Positions 9,700-34,817 of a stretch of DNA of 64,000 nucleotides are shown one piece after another. The stretch spans positions 88,118 through 152,117 of the forward strand of contig CAVVEY010000006.1 in NCBI GenBank assembly GCA_963747385.1, given 5' to 3'. Position numbers and translations under genes: made by a program. The notes beneath the pieces are model-generated. The model had not been told where the DNA came from and searched no databases. It saw only the letters and a list, made by a program, of their open reading frames with translations. This stretch comes from an uncultured bacterium (GTDB taxonomy: Bacteria; Krumholzibacteriota; Krumholzibacteriia; Krumholzibacteriales; Krumholzibacteriaceae). Within the stretch, counting starts at the first letter, position 1. Every line of letters begins with the position of its first letter.

Positions 9700-10820
9700 A
9701 TGGAAAGAACAAGAGCTCATAAACGCCCGCCGCTTCTCGTCCCGGCGCTCGTGGTCCTCGCCGCCCTGATCGCCGTCTATCTCCCTCGTTCGCTCGCGCA
9801 TGGCGGGGTCCGAGGGCTCGCGGAAGGCGCCCGCGCCGGGCATCGCTCTCAGTGTTTTCGTCACCAATCAGCTCGTCGGCTACCGCGAGCCATGCGGTTG
9901 AAAGAAGCACAAGCAATGCGGGATGGCCCGGTGGGCTTCCCTTGTCGAACAGAGACGAAGCGAGAGAGCGGTGCTCGTCGTCGACACGGGCGATTTTTCG
10001 CTGCCGCCGGACACGAGGCAGCGCGATCTGAAGGAACGCTATTTCTTCGAGGCGATGAAGCTCCTCGGTTACGACGCTATCGGCGTCGGCGAGTTCGAGA
10101 CACGGGCCGGGCTCGAGGGGCGCCTCGCGGCCGCCGAACGCTACGGACTCCCTCTCGTGAGCTCGAACATCTTCGATCGAACCCTGAAAAAGCCGGTGGC
10201 CACCGAATCGATCGTCAGGGATATCGGAGGCGCCCGAACGCTCTTCGGCCGCAGGGGAGCGCTGCGCGTCGGAATCTTCTCGGTCGTTCTTGCCTTCTTT
10301 TATCTACCGGGACGGCGCGAATGACCGGCACAGATACAACGTCGTCGATCCGAAACTCTCGGCGCTCGCGGCGGCGACGAATCTGCGCGCGGGGGGGTGC
10401 GATTTCGTCATCGCGGTGAGCCACCTCGGATGGCAGAAGAGCCTCGAGCTCGCCCGGGAAGTGCCGGGGATAGATCTCGTCCTGAACGGGCATCGCGAGC
10501 ACCCGAGAACGCACCAGGAGCGCGTCGGCTCGACGGTCGTGGTCGATACGGGGGAAAAGGAATGGTCGTTCACCGAAGTGTCCGTCACCGTCGACGGCGA
10601 TTCGCTCGTCGTCGTCGCCTCGGACGTCTGCGGCGCGGCCCTCTCGCTGCGCGAGGATCCGCGCTTCACCGGACTTCAGAAGAGATACGCCGATGAGCTC
10701 AAACGGCCTTCCTCGAGCGCGGCGAAGAACCTGAGGCCGGTGAATCGGCGAGATTGTCGCGTGATGATAAAAAGAATGGTGGGGACTGTAGGATTTGAAC
10801 CTACGACTTCTATCGTGTGA
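9700..10820 (+). CDS. exported metallophosphoesterase / 5'-nucleotidase-like protein with degenerate metal motifs, an in-frame UGA at 9899-9901, and 2-3 frameshifts in the assembly
   Basis: N-terminal signal/TM segment (KRPPLLVPALVVLAALIAVYL, frame 1). Frame 2 begins at about 9805: GIALSVFVTNQLVGYREPCG-TGA-KKHKQCGMARWASLVEQRR...VLVVDTGDFS...AIGVGEFE. Frame 3 begins at about 10300: FIYRDG...VSHLGW...DLVLNGHREH. The 3' end is uncertain because the open frame runs into the antisense tRNA-Val. Confidence 0.6.
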
Positions 10821-10851
10821 GGATAGCACTCTACCGCTGAGTTAAGCCCCC
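10777..10851 (-). tRNA. tRNA-Val (anticodon CAC)
   Basis: Manual cloverleaf: acceptor GGGGGCT/AGTCCCC, D stem ACTC/GAGT, anticodon stem CTATC/GATAG with loop CT-CAC-AC, T arm GTAGG-TTCAAAT-CCTAC, discriminator A, encoded CCA. Confidence 0.9.
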
Positions 10852-12162: not shown

Positions 12163-13191
12163 CTCGGCGGCGAGCTTCCAGTACGGATCGGTCACCGGAT
12201 GCTCCAGCTCCGTCGCCACGCCCCCCCGGATCACCCTCAATCCCTCTTTTTCCGGCACGATCTCGCCGCAGCTCGCGCTCGCGATGCCCTCGGCCGCAAG
12301 GGCGCCTGCAAGCTCGTCGACGTCGCGGCCGTCGACGGCGACGATGAGCGTGCCCTCGCTGATCGAACAGAAGGGATCGAAGCCGAAGATCTCCGCGGTC
12401 TGCTTCACGACCGGCTGGACCGGAATCAGATCCTGCTCGATCCGCAATCCATATGCCCCCGCCTTCGCCATCTCGTAGAGCCCGCCCCAGACGCCGCATT
12501 CGGTCGCGTCATGCATGACATGAACCCCCTTGAACGTCCGCGCGATCGCGCAATCGTCCAGCACGCTCATCTGCCTGAACATCGCGGCGGCTTCCCTCTG
12601 GAAGGCTTCCCCTCCCGCTTCGACGAATTTCCCCGGGAACAGCGCGGCGAGGAGCCCCGTCGTCTCTATCGCCGGTCCCTTCGTTATCAAGATCTCGTCC
12701 CCGATTTTCGCCCGGTGGGGACCCCTCAAATGCCTCTCGTCGCCGACCGCGATGGCCGTCGCCCCGCCGACCATCGGATAGTTGCATCCCGTGTACCGCG
12801 CCGTATGCCCCGTGACGACGCTGATTCCATAACGCTGCGCTTCCTCGTGCACGGCGCTCCACAGCTCCTCGAGCTGATCTTCGGTCGTTTCCGGCGGAAG
12901 GTTGAGATCGATCGCGAGGTACTTCGGCGTGAGCCCGGAGACGGCCACGTCGCATACGACGATGTGAAAACCGAACCAGGCCGCTCTCGCGAATCCGAGC
13001 GACGGAACGATGAAGAACGGATCGGTCGACAGCGCGATGACCCTGTCGCCGATTCTGACGACACCGAAGTCGACGCCGTGACGCGGGCCGATCACGACGC
13101 TATCGTCCTGAGCGCCGAGACGGGGGTAGATCACGCGATCGAAAAACTCCGGATGGATCTTGCCGAGATCGGGCAATTTCAAAGCGTTCAT
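12151..13191 (-). CDS. AIR synthase-related protein (PurM/HypE/SelD superfamily)
   Basis: Start at MNALKLPDLGK (ATG 13191-13189), preceded by GGAGGGAGG. It reads DDSVVIGPRHGVDFGVVRIGD...STDPF...GHTARY...MHDATECG. It lacks the SelD GxGCK motif. The track ORF's upstream 320 aa is antisense to trxB and spurious. Confidence 0.7.
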   Translation of the reverse strand: MNALKLPDLGKIHPEFFDRVIYPRLGAQDDSVVIGPRHGVDFGVVRIGDRVIALSTDPFFIVPSLGFARAAWFGFHIVVCDVAVSGLTPKYLAIDLNLPPETTEDQLEELWSAVHEEAQRYGISVVTGHTARYTGCNYPMVGGATAIAVGDERHLRGPHRAKIGDEILITKGPAIETTGLLAALFPGKFVEAGGEAFQREAAAMFRQMSVLDDCAIARTFKGVHVMHDATECGVWGGLYEMAKAGAYGLRIEQDLIPVQPVVKQTAEIFGFDPFCSISEGTLIVAVDGRDVDELAGALAAEGIASASCGEIVPEKEGLRVIRGGVATELEHPVTDPYWKLAAELGG

Positions 13192-13497
13192 GGGTCCTCC
13201 CTCCGCAGGTTCTAACCTGATCAGGTTCAACGGGTCCCCGGATCTCCTCCAGGTTCTCAGCCCCGGCCGGATCGATCGACGTGAGGGGCTCCCCGAACGG
13301 TATCGTTCGTCGCCGAACGCCGCAAGTATCCGCGAGAACGCGTCGTCTGTCAAGCCGCGAGCTTGCCGATCGAGCGGCGCTGAAACGCGGGCCGTCGTTC
13401 CGACGGAACCCCTCGGTCCCGCGTATCCACGTTTTCCCTTGTCCTCGCCCTTTGCAGACTCTATACTTCGAAGCTCAGACTCACGGGAGGATTTTCC

Positions 13498-25589: not shown

Positions 25590-27293
25590 ATGGGGGATCA
25601 TGCGTTCGTTTTTGCGCTGCAGGGCGCGGGATTCAAGGGTGTTCTGGACGTCATCGCCGGAAATTCGATCCTCCTTCTCTTTTCCGTGATCGGGCTCGGA
25701 TACCTCATCGGAAACATCAGAATCTTCGGCTTCAAGCTCGGCGTGGCCGCCGTCCTCTTCGTCGGGATGGCCTTCAGCGCCCTCGACGGGCGTCTCACTC
25801 TGCCCGATCATATCTATGTCATAGGACTCGTGCTCTTCGTGTATGCCATCGGGCTCCAATCCGGCCCCGGTTTTTTCGCCTCGTTCCGCAAGCGGGGTCT
25901 TCGGCTCAATATTTTCGCCGTCGCCGTTCTCTGCGCGGGAGCCGCGCTCGCCATGATCCTCAAGAGCGTCATGGGACTCTCGGCGCCGAGCGTCGCCGGA
26001 CTTTTTTGCGGCGCCCTCACCAACACCCCCGCCCTCGCCGCGACGATCGAAACGATCGAGAACATGAAAGGCGCGCTTCCCCCCGAGGCGATGACGCTCT
26101 ACCTCGGAAGCCCCGTCGTCACCTACGGGCTCGCGTACCCCTTCGGCGTGCTCGGCGTCATTCTCTGGTTCTTCATCTTCATCAAGCTCTTCAGGATCGA
26201 TTTCGCCAAGGAAGAGGCGGAACGCCTCGAGGAGTCGGGCACGGGCACCATCGTCAGCAGAACGCTCAGAATAACGAACCCGGCCATCGACGGCAAGACG
26301 GTCGCGGAAGCGCTTGTCGCGCTCGGCGAGCCCGGATTCGTACTGAGTCGCATTCAGCAGGGAGATACGATCGCGGTTGTTCTCCCCGACACGATCCTCG
26401 CGCTCGGAAACCTCATCGTTGCGGTCGGCAGTCCCGCCACGATCGAGCGGGCTCGCATCATCTTCGGCGAGCTGAGCGCCGAGTCTCTTCCCGAAACGGC
26501 CGGGAACGTCTCCTATCGGCGCATCTTCGTCTCGAACCGACACGTGATCGGCAAAACGCTCCGCGAGCTCGATCTTCACAAGCTCTTCGACGCGACGATC
26601 ACGAGGCTCCGGCGCGGCGACGTCGATTTCGTCCCGTTTCCCGACACGATCCTCGAATCGGGGGACCGCATCCGCGTCGTCGCCCGCCGCGACAATCTCG
26701 AGGCTATCTCGCGGTACTTCGGCGATTCGATCCGCTCGATCTCGGAGACCGATTTTCTCTCGCTCTCTCTCGGCGTCGTTCTCGGAGTGCTCCTCGGGAT
26801 GATCGCGTTCCCGCTCCCGAATGGAATGGTCTTCCGCCTCGGCTTCGCGGGAGGGCCGCTCATCGTCGGTCTCGTCCTCGGCAAGCTGCACCGGACCGGG
26901 CCGATCATCTGGGGGCTGCCGTACACGGCAAACCTCGTGCTGCGCCAGATCGGTCTCGTTTTCTTTCTCGCGGCGATCGGAACGAAGGCGGGTCCGGGGT
27001 TCGGCGCGACATTCAAGTCAGGCGGTTGGGGGCTCATCGCAGCCGGGGCTCTCATCACGAGCCTCGTCGCGGTAACGACGATACTGGCCGGGTACAAGTT
27101 CCTGAAGCTCCCGATGTCGGCCGTCATGGGCGTCGTCTCGGGAATGCACACGCAGCCCGCCTGCCTCGCCTACGCGAATCAGCAGGCGCCGAACGAGCTC
27201 CCGAACATCTGGTACGCCGCGGTCTACCCCGCTTCCATGATCGCGAAGATAATCCTCGCGCAGATCATCGTCTCGTTCCTTCTCGTATCCTGA
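25590..27293 (+). CDS. YidE/YbjL/AspT-type transporter with two central RCK_C (TrkA-C) domains
   Basis: 567-aa intact ORF. Hydrophobic N- and C-terminal halves flank two soluble repeats (RTLRITNPAIDGKTVAEAL... and RRIFVSNRHVIGKTLREL...). Confidence 0.7.
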   Translation: MGDHAFVFALQGAGFKGVLDVIAGNSILLLFSVIGLGYLIGNIRIFGFKLGVAAVLFVGMAFSALDGRLTLPDHIYVIGLVLFVYAIGLQSGPGFFASFRKRGLRLNIFAVAVLCAGAALAMILKSVMGLSAPSVAGLFCGALTNTPALAATIETIENMKGALPPEAMTLYLGSPVVTYGLAYPFGVLGVILWFFIFIKLFRIDFAKEEAERLEESGTGTIVSRTLRITNPAIDGKTVAEALVALGEPGFVLSRIQQGDTIAVVLPDTILALGNLIVAVGSPATIERARIIFGELSAESLPETAGNVSYRRIFVSNRHVIGKTLRELDLHKLFDATITRLRRGDVDFVPFPDTILESGDRIRVVARRDNLEAISRYFGDSIRSISETDFLSLSLGVVLGVLLGMIAFPLPNGMVFRLGFAGGPLIVGLVLGKLHRTGPIIWGLPYTANLVLRQIGLVFFLAAIGTKAGPGFGATFKSGGWGLIAAGALITSLVAVTTILAGYKFLKLPMSAVMGVVSGMHTQPACLAYANQQAPNELPNIWYAAVYPASMIAKIILAQIIVSFLLVS

Positions 27294-27301
27294 AGCCGCC
27301 G

Positions 27302-27330
27302 TTGACAGGGCGCGCGTTTTGCGGTATCAT
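27302..27330 (+). promoter_or_regulatory. sigma-70-type promoter TTGACA-17-TATCAT
   Basis: -35 at 27302-27307 and -10 at 27325-27330. The likely start ATG at 27338 is only about 8 nt downstream, so the mRNA may be leaderless or have a very short leader. Confidence 0.45.
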
Positions 27331-27337
27331 GGACGGC

Positions 27338-27859
27338 ATGAAGAAGCTCATCGCGCTCGCCGCCGCCGTTATCGTCCTCTCTCCGTGCCTCGCGCGGGCG
27401 ATAGACGTGTACGTGCAGGCGGAGAGCTTCACGAGCTCGAGCAACATCAGCTACGAGAACATCCGCGCCTACGAGACCGTACTCCTCGGCCTCGACTATC
27501 CCGGCGAATGGGCCGAGTTTCAGGTTCCGGCCTCCGGGTTCGGGACATACCTGCTCTCGATGCGCTGCTGGGGCAATCTGGGCTCGCCGTACCTGTTTCA
27601 TCTCGTCACAAAACCGGTCGCGGGGGAGGAACCTCAGACGATCGCCCTGAGCTTCGCCGGCAAAGGGTACTGCGGCAGTTGAGGCACTTCCATACTGGTC
27701 TTCGGTGGAGACCTCGTCAGAATCTTCGAATCGCCCCTCACCTTCAGGCTCGTATTCGTATCGGGAGACATCAACGCGTGGATCGACTGGTTCGACTTCG
27801 CGTCGGTGAACGCGACCGAGGGTCGATCCTGGGGAGCGATCAAGAGCCTGTTCCGCTAG
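27338..27859 (+). CDS. secreted beta-sandwich (CBM-like) protein with an in-frame UGA at 27680-27682
   Basis: Signal peptide MKKLIALAAAVIVLSPCLARA. The mature part reads IDVYVQAESF...GEWAEFQV...GTYLLSMRCWG...SFAGKGYCGS-TGA-GTSILVFGGDLVRIFESPLTFRLVFVSGDINAWIDWFDFASVNATEGRSWGAIKSLFR. Sequence on both sides of the TGA is in the same frame and protein-like. Confidence 0.6.
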
Positions 27860-27884
27860 ATTCGCGGCCCGCCGGCCTGCCGCT

Positions 27885-29851
27885 TCAGAATTCGATCGAG
27901 GAATAGAGCGAGTACATATCCGTCCCGGATTCCGTCCTATCGGGAGCTGTCTCCGTGTAATCGATTCGTTCATACCGGAGCCTGACGGAACCGATCTTCT
28001 CGAGCTCGCAGCGAAGTTCCCCGACGATCCCCTTCCGGGACGAGCGTGACGGGGAGATCTCGCCGTCGCGCCATGTTCTCTTCTCGAGCCAGCCGAGACC
28101 GGCGACGAGATTCCTCCCGAGACCGATATCGACCGAAACACCGGAAAGAGAGATCTGCTTCCGCTCCGTCTCGGACGGGGCGAGGTCCGCTTCGCGCAGC
28201 CTCTTGTGGAAGAGAGAGAGCGACATGCGATCGCCGGGCAACGGCATCCGCGCCGACAGCGCGGATGCCCTCGGTGTTTTCCTCGTACGAGAGGGCGGAG
28301 TACGGCGTCGAAAATCCGCGCGCGAGGCGCAGGTAATCCACACGGAGAGACGCGCCCGGCTTCTTTTCCACGACGATTCCCCCGTATCCGCCTCCCCCCC
28401 TGCGCGACACGTCGGCAAGTCCGCCCGCCGTCACGACGCCGCGCTCCCTGGTGTCGTTCCACGCGAGGATCTCGCCCCGCAGGCGCGCGTACCGCACGAT
28501 CGGCGCCTCCGCCGTGAAACTCAGCGTCCGCGTGTCGGTCCACGGATCCGCGGCGAAATACCCGAGCGCGGAGAAATCGACCGAGCGCCTGTTTTCGAAG
28601 CTCGCGATCGCGTGCGCCGCCGCCTTCCAGAACGACCCCGTCCGCCGATCGAGGCGCTGCCACCTCAGCTCGGCGCCCGCGATCTCCCTGGAATATCGCG
28701 CCCGCTCCGTTCCACCGAAACTGTGCGCCAGGTAACTCGTTTCGATCGCCCGCCGCGGGATCGCGTAGAACAGGCGCACCTCGAGATCGGCCGCGCCATA
28801 TGAAGCGAGCGCCCCCTCGAAGGTCAGATCGGGCCCGAGCTCCTCGAGGCTCTCGACGATGAGCGCCCCCGCGGCCGGGCCGCCGCATCCGCAGCCGGCG
28901 TCTCCCCCGACGCGCGGGCTGTCGTCCCAGTCCCAGCGCATGAGGGTCAGCGGCGTCATGGAGATATCGTAGTATCCGATTCTCGCGCGGAAACGCCGCG
29001 GCCTCGAACTCGGCGAACGCGCTCCCCCACTCCGAGCCGAGGTATTCCGGGCCTGAAGCGAGGATCTTCTTCCCTTCGTTGGAGACCCTGAGAAGCCCCC
29101 CCGCGCGAAGACCCTTCGCGAGCCTCATCGACGCTTCGACCTCGAGCCGGTACTGAACGGTCCGCCGCGGACTGACCGGTTCACCGTAGAGCCCCGTCGC
29201 GTCCGCCCCGTGCGCGTCGACGGCGAGCAACCGGATCCGCTGGAGCCCGTGACAGGAGAAGACCCTTCCCTCCTCCCATGAGCCGGCTTCTTTCGGCACG
29301 CCGGGCGCGCCCCGCGGTTCCTCGCTCCTCGCGACAGGGATCTCCCCCTGCCGCAGCATCTCCTCCATCGCCGCGCCCGTATCTCCTTCGGGATCGAATC
29401 GCACGCCGAGAACGGCGCCTCCCTTTCCGACAAGGCACAGCGTGAACGTCTCGAACGGTATACCGTAGCTCGCGGCCACCATCCCTCCCGCGTCATGAGC
29501 CTGGGGAAAGGTGATGCCGTTCGACTCGATCACCCCGCGCGCCGCGAGCCGGTCGCGGTCGTCGCCGTTGATCCCGAAGACGGCGATATCCTCGCCGCCG
29601 TATATTCGATGGAAACGCTCGCAGCCGAGGAGCGATTCGACGCAGTGGAGACAGCTCGATCGCCAGAAAACGACGAACGTGTACTCGTGTTTCGAAAAGA
29701 GCTCGCCCGACAGCGCGCTCCCCGCGCCGTCCACGAGCGGAAGGTCGAAAGGGGGCGCCGTCTGACCCGGATCGATCGCGAGCGCCGACGATCCCGCGAA
29801 CATGCTCGCTGCGAGCGCGATCGCCGCCACCAGGCGAAGCCGTGCGTTCAT
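27885..29851 (-). CDS. TlpA/ResA-like thioredoxin-fold domain fused to an outer-membrane beta-barrel-like domain; two frameshifts in assembly
   Basis: RBS AAGGAGG, signal peptide MNARLRLVAAIALAASMFAGSSALA, and a redoxin domain with WRSSCLHCV (CxxC). About 450 aa of alternating-pattern sequence follow, ending YSLYSSIEF (terminal Phe). The three ORF pieces join by +1 shifts at 28980-28981 and about 28250. Confidence 0.6.
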
Positions 29852-30810: not shown

Positions 30811-30885
30811 TGGTAGCCCCTAGGGGAGTCGAACCCCTGATTCTTGGCTGAGAACCAAGCGTCCTGACCACTAGACTAAGGGGCC
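30811..30885 (-). tRNA. tRNA-Glu (anticodon CUC)
   Basis: Manual cloverleaf: GGCCCCT..., anticodon stem CTTGG/CCAAG with loop TT-CTC-AG, T arm AGGGG-TTCGACT-CCCCT, encoded CCA. Confidence 0.9.
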
Positions 30886-30897
30886 ACCCTGTCGTTC

Positions 30898-30971
30898 TGG
30901 CTGGGGAGGAAGGAGTCGAACCCTCATTAACTGATCCAGAGTCAGGTGTCCTGCCATTAGACCACTCCCCA
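30898..30971 (-). tRNA. tRNA-Gln (anticodon CUG)
   Basis: Manual cloverleaf: U1-A72 acceptor TGGGGAG/CTCCCCA, anticodon loop CT-CTG-GA, T arm GAGGG-TTCGACT-CCTTC, discriminator G, encoded CCA. Confidence 0.85.
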
Positions 30972-34741: not shown

Positions 34742-34817
34742 GGCGGTGTAGCTCAGCTGGTAGAGCAGGAGAATCATAATCTCTGTGTCCGGGGTTCGAG
34801 TCCCTGCACCGCCACCA
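34742..34817 (+). tRNA. tRNA with CAU anticodon (elongator Met or Ile2, not initiator)
   Basis: Manual cloverleaf: GGCGGTG/CACCGCC acceptor (G1-C72), anticodon stem GGAGA/TCTCT with loop AT-CAT-AA, T arm CGGGG-TTCGAGT-CCCTG, encoded CCA. It lacks the three G-C pairs of an initiator anticodon stem. Confidence 0.85.

Follow-up and report, generated by a model that had tools for sequence, protein, structure and literature searches.

A probable new family of secreted selenoproteins with a predicted carbohydrate-binding-module fold in the uncultured phylum Krumholzibacteriota

Background

Almost all known bacterial selenoproteins are thioredoxin-like or are enzyme active-site proteins (PMC13188914). 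The gene described here, which occupies positions 27338-27859 of the forward strand of a 64,000 nucleotide (nt) stretch of DNA (the window; G+C content 62%) from the phylum Krumholzibacteriota, has an in-frame UGA as codon 115, and comparison with its relatives makes it very probable that it is a genuine selenoprotein gene with a selenocysteine insertion sequence (SECIS) and that this codon is read as selenocysteine (Sec, U). Its mature product is predicted to be a single beta-sandwich like that of the carbohydrate-binding modules (CBMs) of families CBM6 and CBM35, and we know of no CBM that is a selenoprotein. Its conserved neighbour encodes a domain similar to those of ResA/TlpA type, which reduce specific periplasmic clients.

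We regard the family as new among selenoproteins, with an unusual scaffold and a known mechanism; no description of it was found. Table 1 of PMC13188914 covers 119 prokaryotic selenoprotein families and subfamilies, none of them with a CBM-type domain, and there is no mention of carbohydrate, CBM or secreted in that paper or in the BSepDB paper. A literature search gave no description of a CBM-type, galactose-binding-domain or Krumholzibacteria selenoprotein, NCBIfam release 20 (including recently named selenoprotein families) gave no match at E<=1, and public records name the members 'hypothetical protein' in truncated form. The whole family, more than 100 clusters at 50% identity, is mis-annotated as short hypothetical proteins of 113-125 residues. 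With its invariant Sec/Cys on a secreted, stand-alone fold of the sugar-binding-module type, the family would add to the kinds of scaffold on which selenium is known to be used, and it suggests that there is selenol chemistry in the cell envelope of an uncultured phylum about which little is known.

Conservation across the UGA codon

When TGA is translated as U, the gene reads ...GKGYCGS-U-GTSILVFGGDLVRIF...SWGAIKSLFR, a product of 173 residues identical to the string given in the initial annotation, which had drawn attention to the in-frame stop. The codons around it are tac tgc ggc agt TGA ggc act and the peptide there is ...GYCGS-U-GTSILVFGGDLVR. The parts of the gene are as follows.

27338-27859 (+): selenoprotein gene (very probable); ATG at 27338, TAG at 27857-27859, 173-residue precursor; annotated by gene callers as 114 amino acids
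27338-27400 (+): signal peptide, residues 1-21 (MKKLIALAAAVIVLSPCLARA), with an A-R-A cleavage site and then IDVYVQAE; read from sequence
27671-27673 (+): TGC codon of Cys112, the C of C-G-S-U; present in 19 of 31 aligned family members
27680-27682 (+): UGA, very probably Sec at residue 115; every one of 18 distinct loci has TGA at this column, and each of 31 aligned sequences reads U or C there
27697-27713 (+): putative SECIS-type recoding hairpin; put forward on RNAalifold, covariation, Sec copies against Cys copies and diversity by codon position
27683-27856 (+): post-UGA coding part, residues 116-173; last four beta-strands, third-position substitution excess, dN/dS 0.44-0.54
27827-27856 (+): C-terminal tag SWGAIKSLFR, a lineage-wide C-terminal motif kept in all family members

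The window by itself is weak evidence, since a run of 58 open codons after a stop is no rarity (by our own estimate about one in five by chance at 62% G+C) and the RNA folds no better than shuffled sequences, and the case therefore rests on comparison. A word-indexed protein search returned 31 homologues, with identities down to 53%, every one of them annotated as 113-130 residues and most stopping right after ...C-G-S. At the DNA level there were 22 full-length or near-full-length related loci (17 distinct), and in the 20 that span the whole gene tblastn crossed the stop and covered residues 1-173. TGA stands in the identical column in all 18 distinct metagenomic and genomic loci, whereas the true terminators vary (TAG, TAA, TGA). 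Homologues ending at UGA, which the initial annotation had named as evidence that would tell against it, were not found; in all of them TGA is followed by a conserved in-frame extension. The 58 codons concerned are conserved as ...VFESPLTFRLVFVSG..AWIDWF.F.....E..SWGAIKSLFR, with insertions and deletions of whole codons only, and the ratio of nonsynonymous to synonymous substitution rates (dN/dS) is 0.37 upstream of UGA as against 0.44-0.54 downstream. Nucleotide diversity at the three codon positions is 0.187/0.156/0.298 past the hairpin and 0.209/0.195/0.354 in the N-terminal part, the excess of third-position substitutions downstream of the hairpin being like that of the N-terminal part.

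When 208 species genomes of the Krumholzibacteriota were searched in all six frames, 52 proved to carry the family, in 67 copies, of which 56 have one TGA, one has two, one has a TGA and a TAA, and nine have no stop. One of the nine is a contig-end fragment; the other eight are full-length, and all eight have Cys exactly in the U column. In an alignment of 31 sequences, 25 have U in this column and the other six have C, so that the sole alternative to Sec is Cys and not the unrelated residue that had also been named as contrary evidence. A profile search of 1.84 billion representatives gave more than 100 clusters of 110-125 residues stopping at profile position 111-114, alongside four proteins of 176-195 residues that run on without interruption and have Cys in place of Sec. 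Cys-containing homologues had been predicted, and those found include P0037, P0038, P0039 and P0089 as well as the eight genomic copies, some in tandem with a Sec copy. Sec and Cys paralogues lie 50-120 nt apart at four loci (L043, L044, L045 and L046, in genomes G058, G061, G052 and G049 respectively), offering natural pairs for the study of Sec/Cys exchange and of SECIS gain or loss, and a further Sec/Cys pair exists inside one genus (G012 versus G011). Members labelled 'Latescibacterota' or 'Patescibacteria group' by NCBI fall in the same GTDB phylum or family according to kinship tables. The gene shows all the sequence-level hallmarks by which bacterial selenoprotein families are recognised.

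Two members are irregular. L051 (G080:C20:41832-42347, minus strand) has a second in-frame TGA at the position of the Trp of the tag (SSS-TGA-GLIKAIYKN), for which a lesion (TGG to TGA), an error and a second recoding event are all conceivable. In P0120, of 136 amino acids, a start resembling a post-UGA part (GSGQVQL...) is followed by an N-terminal CBM-like part and, at the end, by TWGAIKSLYE, perhaps because the gene is permuted or because gene calling joined tandem copies into a chimera.

The recoding hairpin

RNAalifold, applied to 18 distinct sequences, independently found a single helix, in which columns 27-32 pair with columns 38-43, equivalent to window positions 27697-27713. The stem, GGUCUU/GGAGACC, has six pairs including one U-G, closes a pentaloop CGGUG and starts 14 nt past UGA. 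The initial annotation had placed a hairpin at this very position; its five-pair stem and UCGGUGG loop give way, on the comparative data, to the six pairs and pentaloop just described. Paired states fill 98% of the cells of the alignment as against about 50% in slid controls, none of 500 shuffles reached the observed values, and compensatory change is seen in four of the six pairs (GC/CG, CG/UA, AU/UA/GC). The three codon positions within the hairpin are equally variable (0.37/0.34/0.35) and the peptide encoded there changes (FGGD, TGSG, TGSD), from which it follows that the constraint is on the RNA and not on the protein.

More distant relatives tell a similar story. Five divergent TGA copies (30-40% identity) have a GC-rich hairpin of 5-8 base pairs with a pentaloop CGGGA at 12-17 nt after UGA, on stems unrelated in sequence, and two others (G039, G012) have variant loops. 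The Sec copies examined all have a hairpin, whereas the Cys copies have none. The family loop pattern is CGG(G/U/C)(A/G), 12-17 nt after UGA. The window holds another candidate Sec codon, in a PCG-U motif (9899-9945), and its hairpin, GGGA(U)GGCC-CGGUG-GGCUUCCC, has a pentaloop identical to that at 27703-27707. It is proposed that the short GC-rich hairpin with its CGG-containing pentaloop, 14 nt past UGA, would direct recoding as a bacterial SECIS. A lineage-specific consensus of this kind (GC-rich stem, CGGGA or CGGUG, 12-17 nt post-UGA) could serve to search these genomes for other selenoprotein genes.

Selenocysteine machinery and the genetic code

Absence of the Sec machinery was a further outcome that the initial annotation had set against its proposal, and the machinery is present. 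The same genome (G000) carries tRNA-Sec (anticodon tca) on contig C7, SelA on C19, the wing domains of SelB on C3 and SelD on C6. The selD gene, which lies outside the window, has an in-frame TGA of its own (C6:9360-10286, minus strand; ...SCAG-U-AAKLSP), and SelD, judged by its sequence, is itself a selenoprotein in this genome. SelA occurs in 200 of the phylum's 208 genomes, including all 125 of good quality. TGA is the commonest terminator, ending 950 of 1558 long open reading frames (ORFs) of the genome, and has therefore not been reassigned. UGA-115 would be decoded by the organism's own SelA/SelB/SelD/tRNA-Sec system.

Predicted fold, selenocysteine site and C-terminal tag

An AlphaFold2 run on an 18-sequence alignment gave an all-beta sandwich with a mean predicted local distance difference test score (pLDDT) of 81.7 and a predicted template modelling score (pTM) of 0.77. 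The strands that follow Sec (residues 119-122, 127-129, 134-142 and 148-156) are modelled with pLDDT values of 86-90 over residues 121-160, and a short C-terminal helix spans residues 165-172. The best PDB matches found by Foldseek are CBM35, CBM6 and CBM36 modules (E 8e-6 to 2e-4, target-normalised TM-scores of 0.65-0.78), and the family profile matches the CBM6-like repeats of 8zvk with an E value of 1.5e-9, in keeping with the CBM-like fold suggested initially. The Pfam model CBM_6 (PF03422) reached 14.1 bits against a gathering cut-off of 28.9, over residues 27-70 only. The protein of 173 amino acids has no enzyme domain and is a stand-alone module. A product of 114 residues would, on the model, be an incomplete domain, and because four strands and the tag lie after UGA it is only the recoded product that should be able to fold and carry the tag.

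The invariant residues of the family are E29, G51, D53, E57, W58, G69, G79, G108, G110, U115, G123, G143, D150, W165 and K169. The loop that holds Sec in the model, G-x-G-x(1-3)-U (here G108-x-G110-x-C112-G-S-U115), connects strands 101-107 and 119-122. The loops at this end of CBM6/35 modules form a ligand-binding cleft. A second Cys is found near the Sec or Cys in nearly all members, at a place that varies (-3, +2, -2 or an inserted neighbouring loop): it is at -3, giving CxxU, in 19 of 31 sequences, other members have UxC, CxC or CxU, and where there is no Cys at -3 it may be in an inserted loop SGCSGGY. The C-x-x-U motif noticed initially is accordingly a property of this subfamily, and what is invariant across the family is the G-x-G...U/C loop together with a second Cys of variable position. 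The pattern suggests, at the level of sequence, a two-residue selenol/thiol site.

About 30 ORFs of the genome end in [ST]-W-G-[AGS]-[IV]-K-[SNQ]-[LI]-[FY] followed by 0-2 residues, often preceded by G-V-(E/Q)-x-x. This tag looks like a candidate lineage-wide C-terminal sorting or anchoring signal with no known machinery, and since that of the selenoprotein lies past UGA it provides a further, independent argument for read-through.

Alternative explanations of the in-frame TGA

It might be supposed that the TGA at 27680 is a true stop, that the protein has 114 residues and that the downstream conservation belongs to an antisense gene or to a separate small ORF. Gene callers do annotate all the homologues at about 114 amino acids, the opposite strand has an ORF of 69 codons at 27634-27843, and two downstream fragments of 53 amino acids have been called as separate proteins in public data. 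However, no start codon is conserved in the downstream part, whose conservation begins at the codon after TGA, always in the same frame and with whole-codon indels; neither TAA nor TAG ever takes the place of this TGA, while the terminal stops vary; Cys replaces it in eight copies to give uninterrupted ORFs; and the 114-residue product would be without the four sandwich strands and the tag. Termination at this codon is thus regarded as most improbable. An error of sequencing or assembly, or a pseudogene lesion in an error-prone assembly, is less credible still, for although the neighbouring gene has two +1 insertions that are absent from relatives, more than 50 independent assemblies, made in different projects, share this TGA.

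Read-through without selenium, with UGA decoded as Trp, Cys or Gly by a near-cognate or suppressor tRNA, or through lineage-wide reassignment of TGA, is also very unlikely, if by a hair less so than a true stop. Some Patescibacteria lineages reassign TGA, and one related contig is labelled 'Patescibacteria group', but the genome of that contig belongs, by GTDB-based kinship, to the same family as the window. No other codon terminates as many of the long ORFs of the genome as TGA, which also ends several members of the protein family, Cys is the only sense alternative in the Sec column, the covarying hairpin at SECIS spacing is present in TGA copies and not in Cys copies, and the genome has a complete Sec machinery. 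What speaks against selenocysteine decoding comes from the RNA of the window taken singly: the hairpin region is indistinguishable from shuffles in single-sequence folding (z = 0.33), the minimum free energy structure takes another register there, and no SECIS-type match was found in Rfam, either at gathering thresholds over the window or in a permissive scan of 27600-27800. Insertion of selenocysteine at codon 115 nevertheless remains by a wide measure the best supported account of the gene.

Export signal, promoter and surroundings

The N-terminus is a typical signal peptide of the Sec export type, for which the AlphaFold2 model has a helix of low pLDDT at residues 2-14. A lipoprotein reading, based on the Cys in LSPC, was rejected: Cys17 is not conserved, and the signal peptide is therefore one without a lipobox. 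Upstream lies one further element.

27302-27330 (+): sigma-70-like promoter, TTGACA-17 nt-TATCAT; 11 of 12 consensus matches, conserved in genus-level relatives

It is the sole such site in 27200-28000, where 0.2 would be expected, and in genus-level relatives it is conserved at the same distance as TTGAC(A/T)-17-TACAAT. No Shine-Dalgarno sequence is present (27302-27340). Because the -10 hexamer ends only 7 nt 5' of the ATG, the selenoprotein mRNA probably has no leader or almost none. The upstream neighbour is an Asp-Al_Ex/TrkA_C transporter gene, syntenic within the genus. Elsewhere in the window, the Rfam matches at gathering thresholds are a TPP riboswitch and four tRNA genes (13180-13305 (-); 10780-10851 and 30814-30971 (-); 34742-34814 (+)).

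The partner gene and possible function

Downstream of the selenoprotein gene, and facing it, is a gene here called the partner.

27885-29851 (-): convergent partner gene; signal peptide, ResA/TlpA-like CxxC domain and about 450 amino acids of probable barrel

In relatives the partner is a single ORF of 654-662 residues (657 amino acids in L002) with a signal peptide and a thioredoxin-fold domain that matches AhpC-TSA, Redoxin and ResA and carries the motif W-R-S-S-C-P/L-H-C. Its C-terminal part of about 450 residues has some 20 long predicted beta-strands and ends in Phe (...YSLYSSIEF); the AlphaFold2 model is of low confidence (pLDDT 55) and its Foldseek matches are all porin-type outer-membrane barrels, so that this domain is probably, as modelled, an outer-membrane beta-barrel, to which no specific family is assigned. 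The fusion of a ResA/TlpA-like CxxC domain to an outer-membrane barrel is an unusual architecture, conserved across the phylum. The partner lies within 1 kb of the selenoprotein gene in 38 of the 52 carrier genomes, with partner identity down to about 30%; the two genes converge in three families and point the same way in a fourth (G009-G013, G018, G019). In G200 the two genes are 220 kb apart.

The motif pattern and the adjacency of the two genes lead us to infer that Sec and the second Cys may form an envelope redox pair of selenol and thiol, or a chalcogen- or metal-binding pair, working with or handled by the partner, a reading which is quite possible although it falls somewhat short of even. 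A stronger version, in which this is the first lectin-fold selenoprotein family and the exported Sec/Cys sandwich with its sorting tag makes up, with a reductase-barrel partner that keeps it reduced, docks it or lets it pass through, an undescribed two-gene envelope system, is offered as a rather unlikely one on the evidence to hand. If true, it would mean selenol chemistry at the cell surface, for example extracellular redox or the capture of chalcogens or metals, and the partner fusion and the shared C-terminal tag are in any event testable leads on envelope biology.

A number of observations count against the functional interpretation. CxxU is not conserved family-wide, nor is any second Cys universal; the partner gene is missing from one genus that has both Sec and Cys copies; the distant subfamily L023 sits amid housekeeping genes of pyrimidine and nucleotide-sugar metabolism, again without the partner (a word-index search with the L023 protein gave only unnamed truncated proteins); and in the present assembly the partner is split over three frames by two single-base (+1) insertions that three relatives (L002, L003, L007) do not have, one near 28258 and the other near 28989-28991. 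These may be assembly indels or may mark a real pseudogene. The initial annotation had described all other frame breaks of the window as +1 insertions, which holds for this neighbouring gene, the sole gene checked. The main alternative to the functional reading is that the protein is a true selenoprotein in which Sec is a residue of the ligand site of a lectin-like module, serving to bind a metal or metalloid or for covalent capture, and in which the adjacency of the partner is incidental. The fold is that of ligand-binding modules, the loop with Sec is found, in the model, at one of the two ends of the sandwich, and the lack of a universal second Cys and of the partner in some members are in accord with this view. 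It has to be set against the retention of adjacency in 38 of 52 genomes, in two orientations and down to about 30% identity, and the fact that nearly all members keep some second Cys near the Sec or Cys, whether close by in the sequence or carried on an inserted loop. A role of this sort in binding a ligand or metal, without partnership, is a serious contender, to which we would give rather more than a slight chance and clearly less than an even one.

Comparison with known systems

Selenoproteins with a CxxU motif (SelW-like, GrdA, AhpD-like/CMD-like and DUF1858 proteins; PMC13188914) share with the present family C-x-x-U itself, the exchange of Sec and Cys and a hairpin soon past UGA. The present family differs from them in its CBM-type sandwich fold and in being exported, in that CxxU is not family-wide and in giving no match to an NCBIfam selenoprotein model; it differs in fold from thioredoxin-fold redox selenoproteins with CxxU or UxxC too, the protein described here being modelled as an all-beta sandwich. 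The UshA-like 'PCGU' selenoprotein (NF041198), to which the candidate at 9899 belongs, is also exported, of non-thioredoxin fold, with a Cys near Sec and a CGGUG loop, and is likewise truncated in public records; its fold is the unrelated one of metallophosphoesterases and it has already been catalogued, whereas the lectin-fold family has not. ResA/TlpA oxidoreductases resemble the conserved neighbour in its signal peptide and ResA/TlpA-like CxxC domain, but in the neighbour the domain is fused to a probable barrel of about 450 amino acids, and the lectin-fold client is proposed from adjacency alone. The closest structural relatives are the CBM6, CBM35 and CBM36 modules (PDB 2w1w, 2cdp/2cdo, 1gmm and 1ux7, and the 8zvk repeats), which have, according to the model, the same beta-sandwich fold, and with the CBM6-like repeats of 8zvk there is in common the N-terminal signature (Q/E)AE(D/S)(F/Y)...G(L/I)D.xGEW..(F/Y)...xGxY. 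CBM6 modules bind carbohydrate and are as a rule attached to a carbohydrate-active enzyme; unlike CBM6 proper the family scores below the Pfam threshold. Unlike all of these modules, the selenoprotein is secreted as a stand-alone domain with no glycoside hydrolase, and it has both a C-terminal tag and a Gly-rich loop that bears Sec or Cys.

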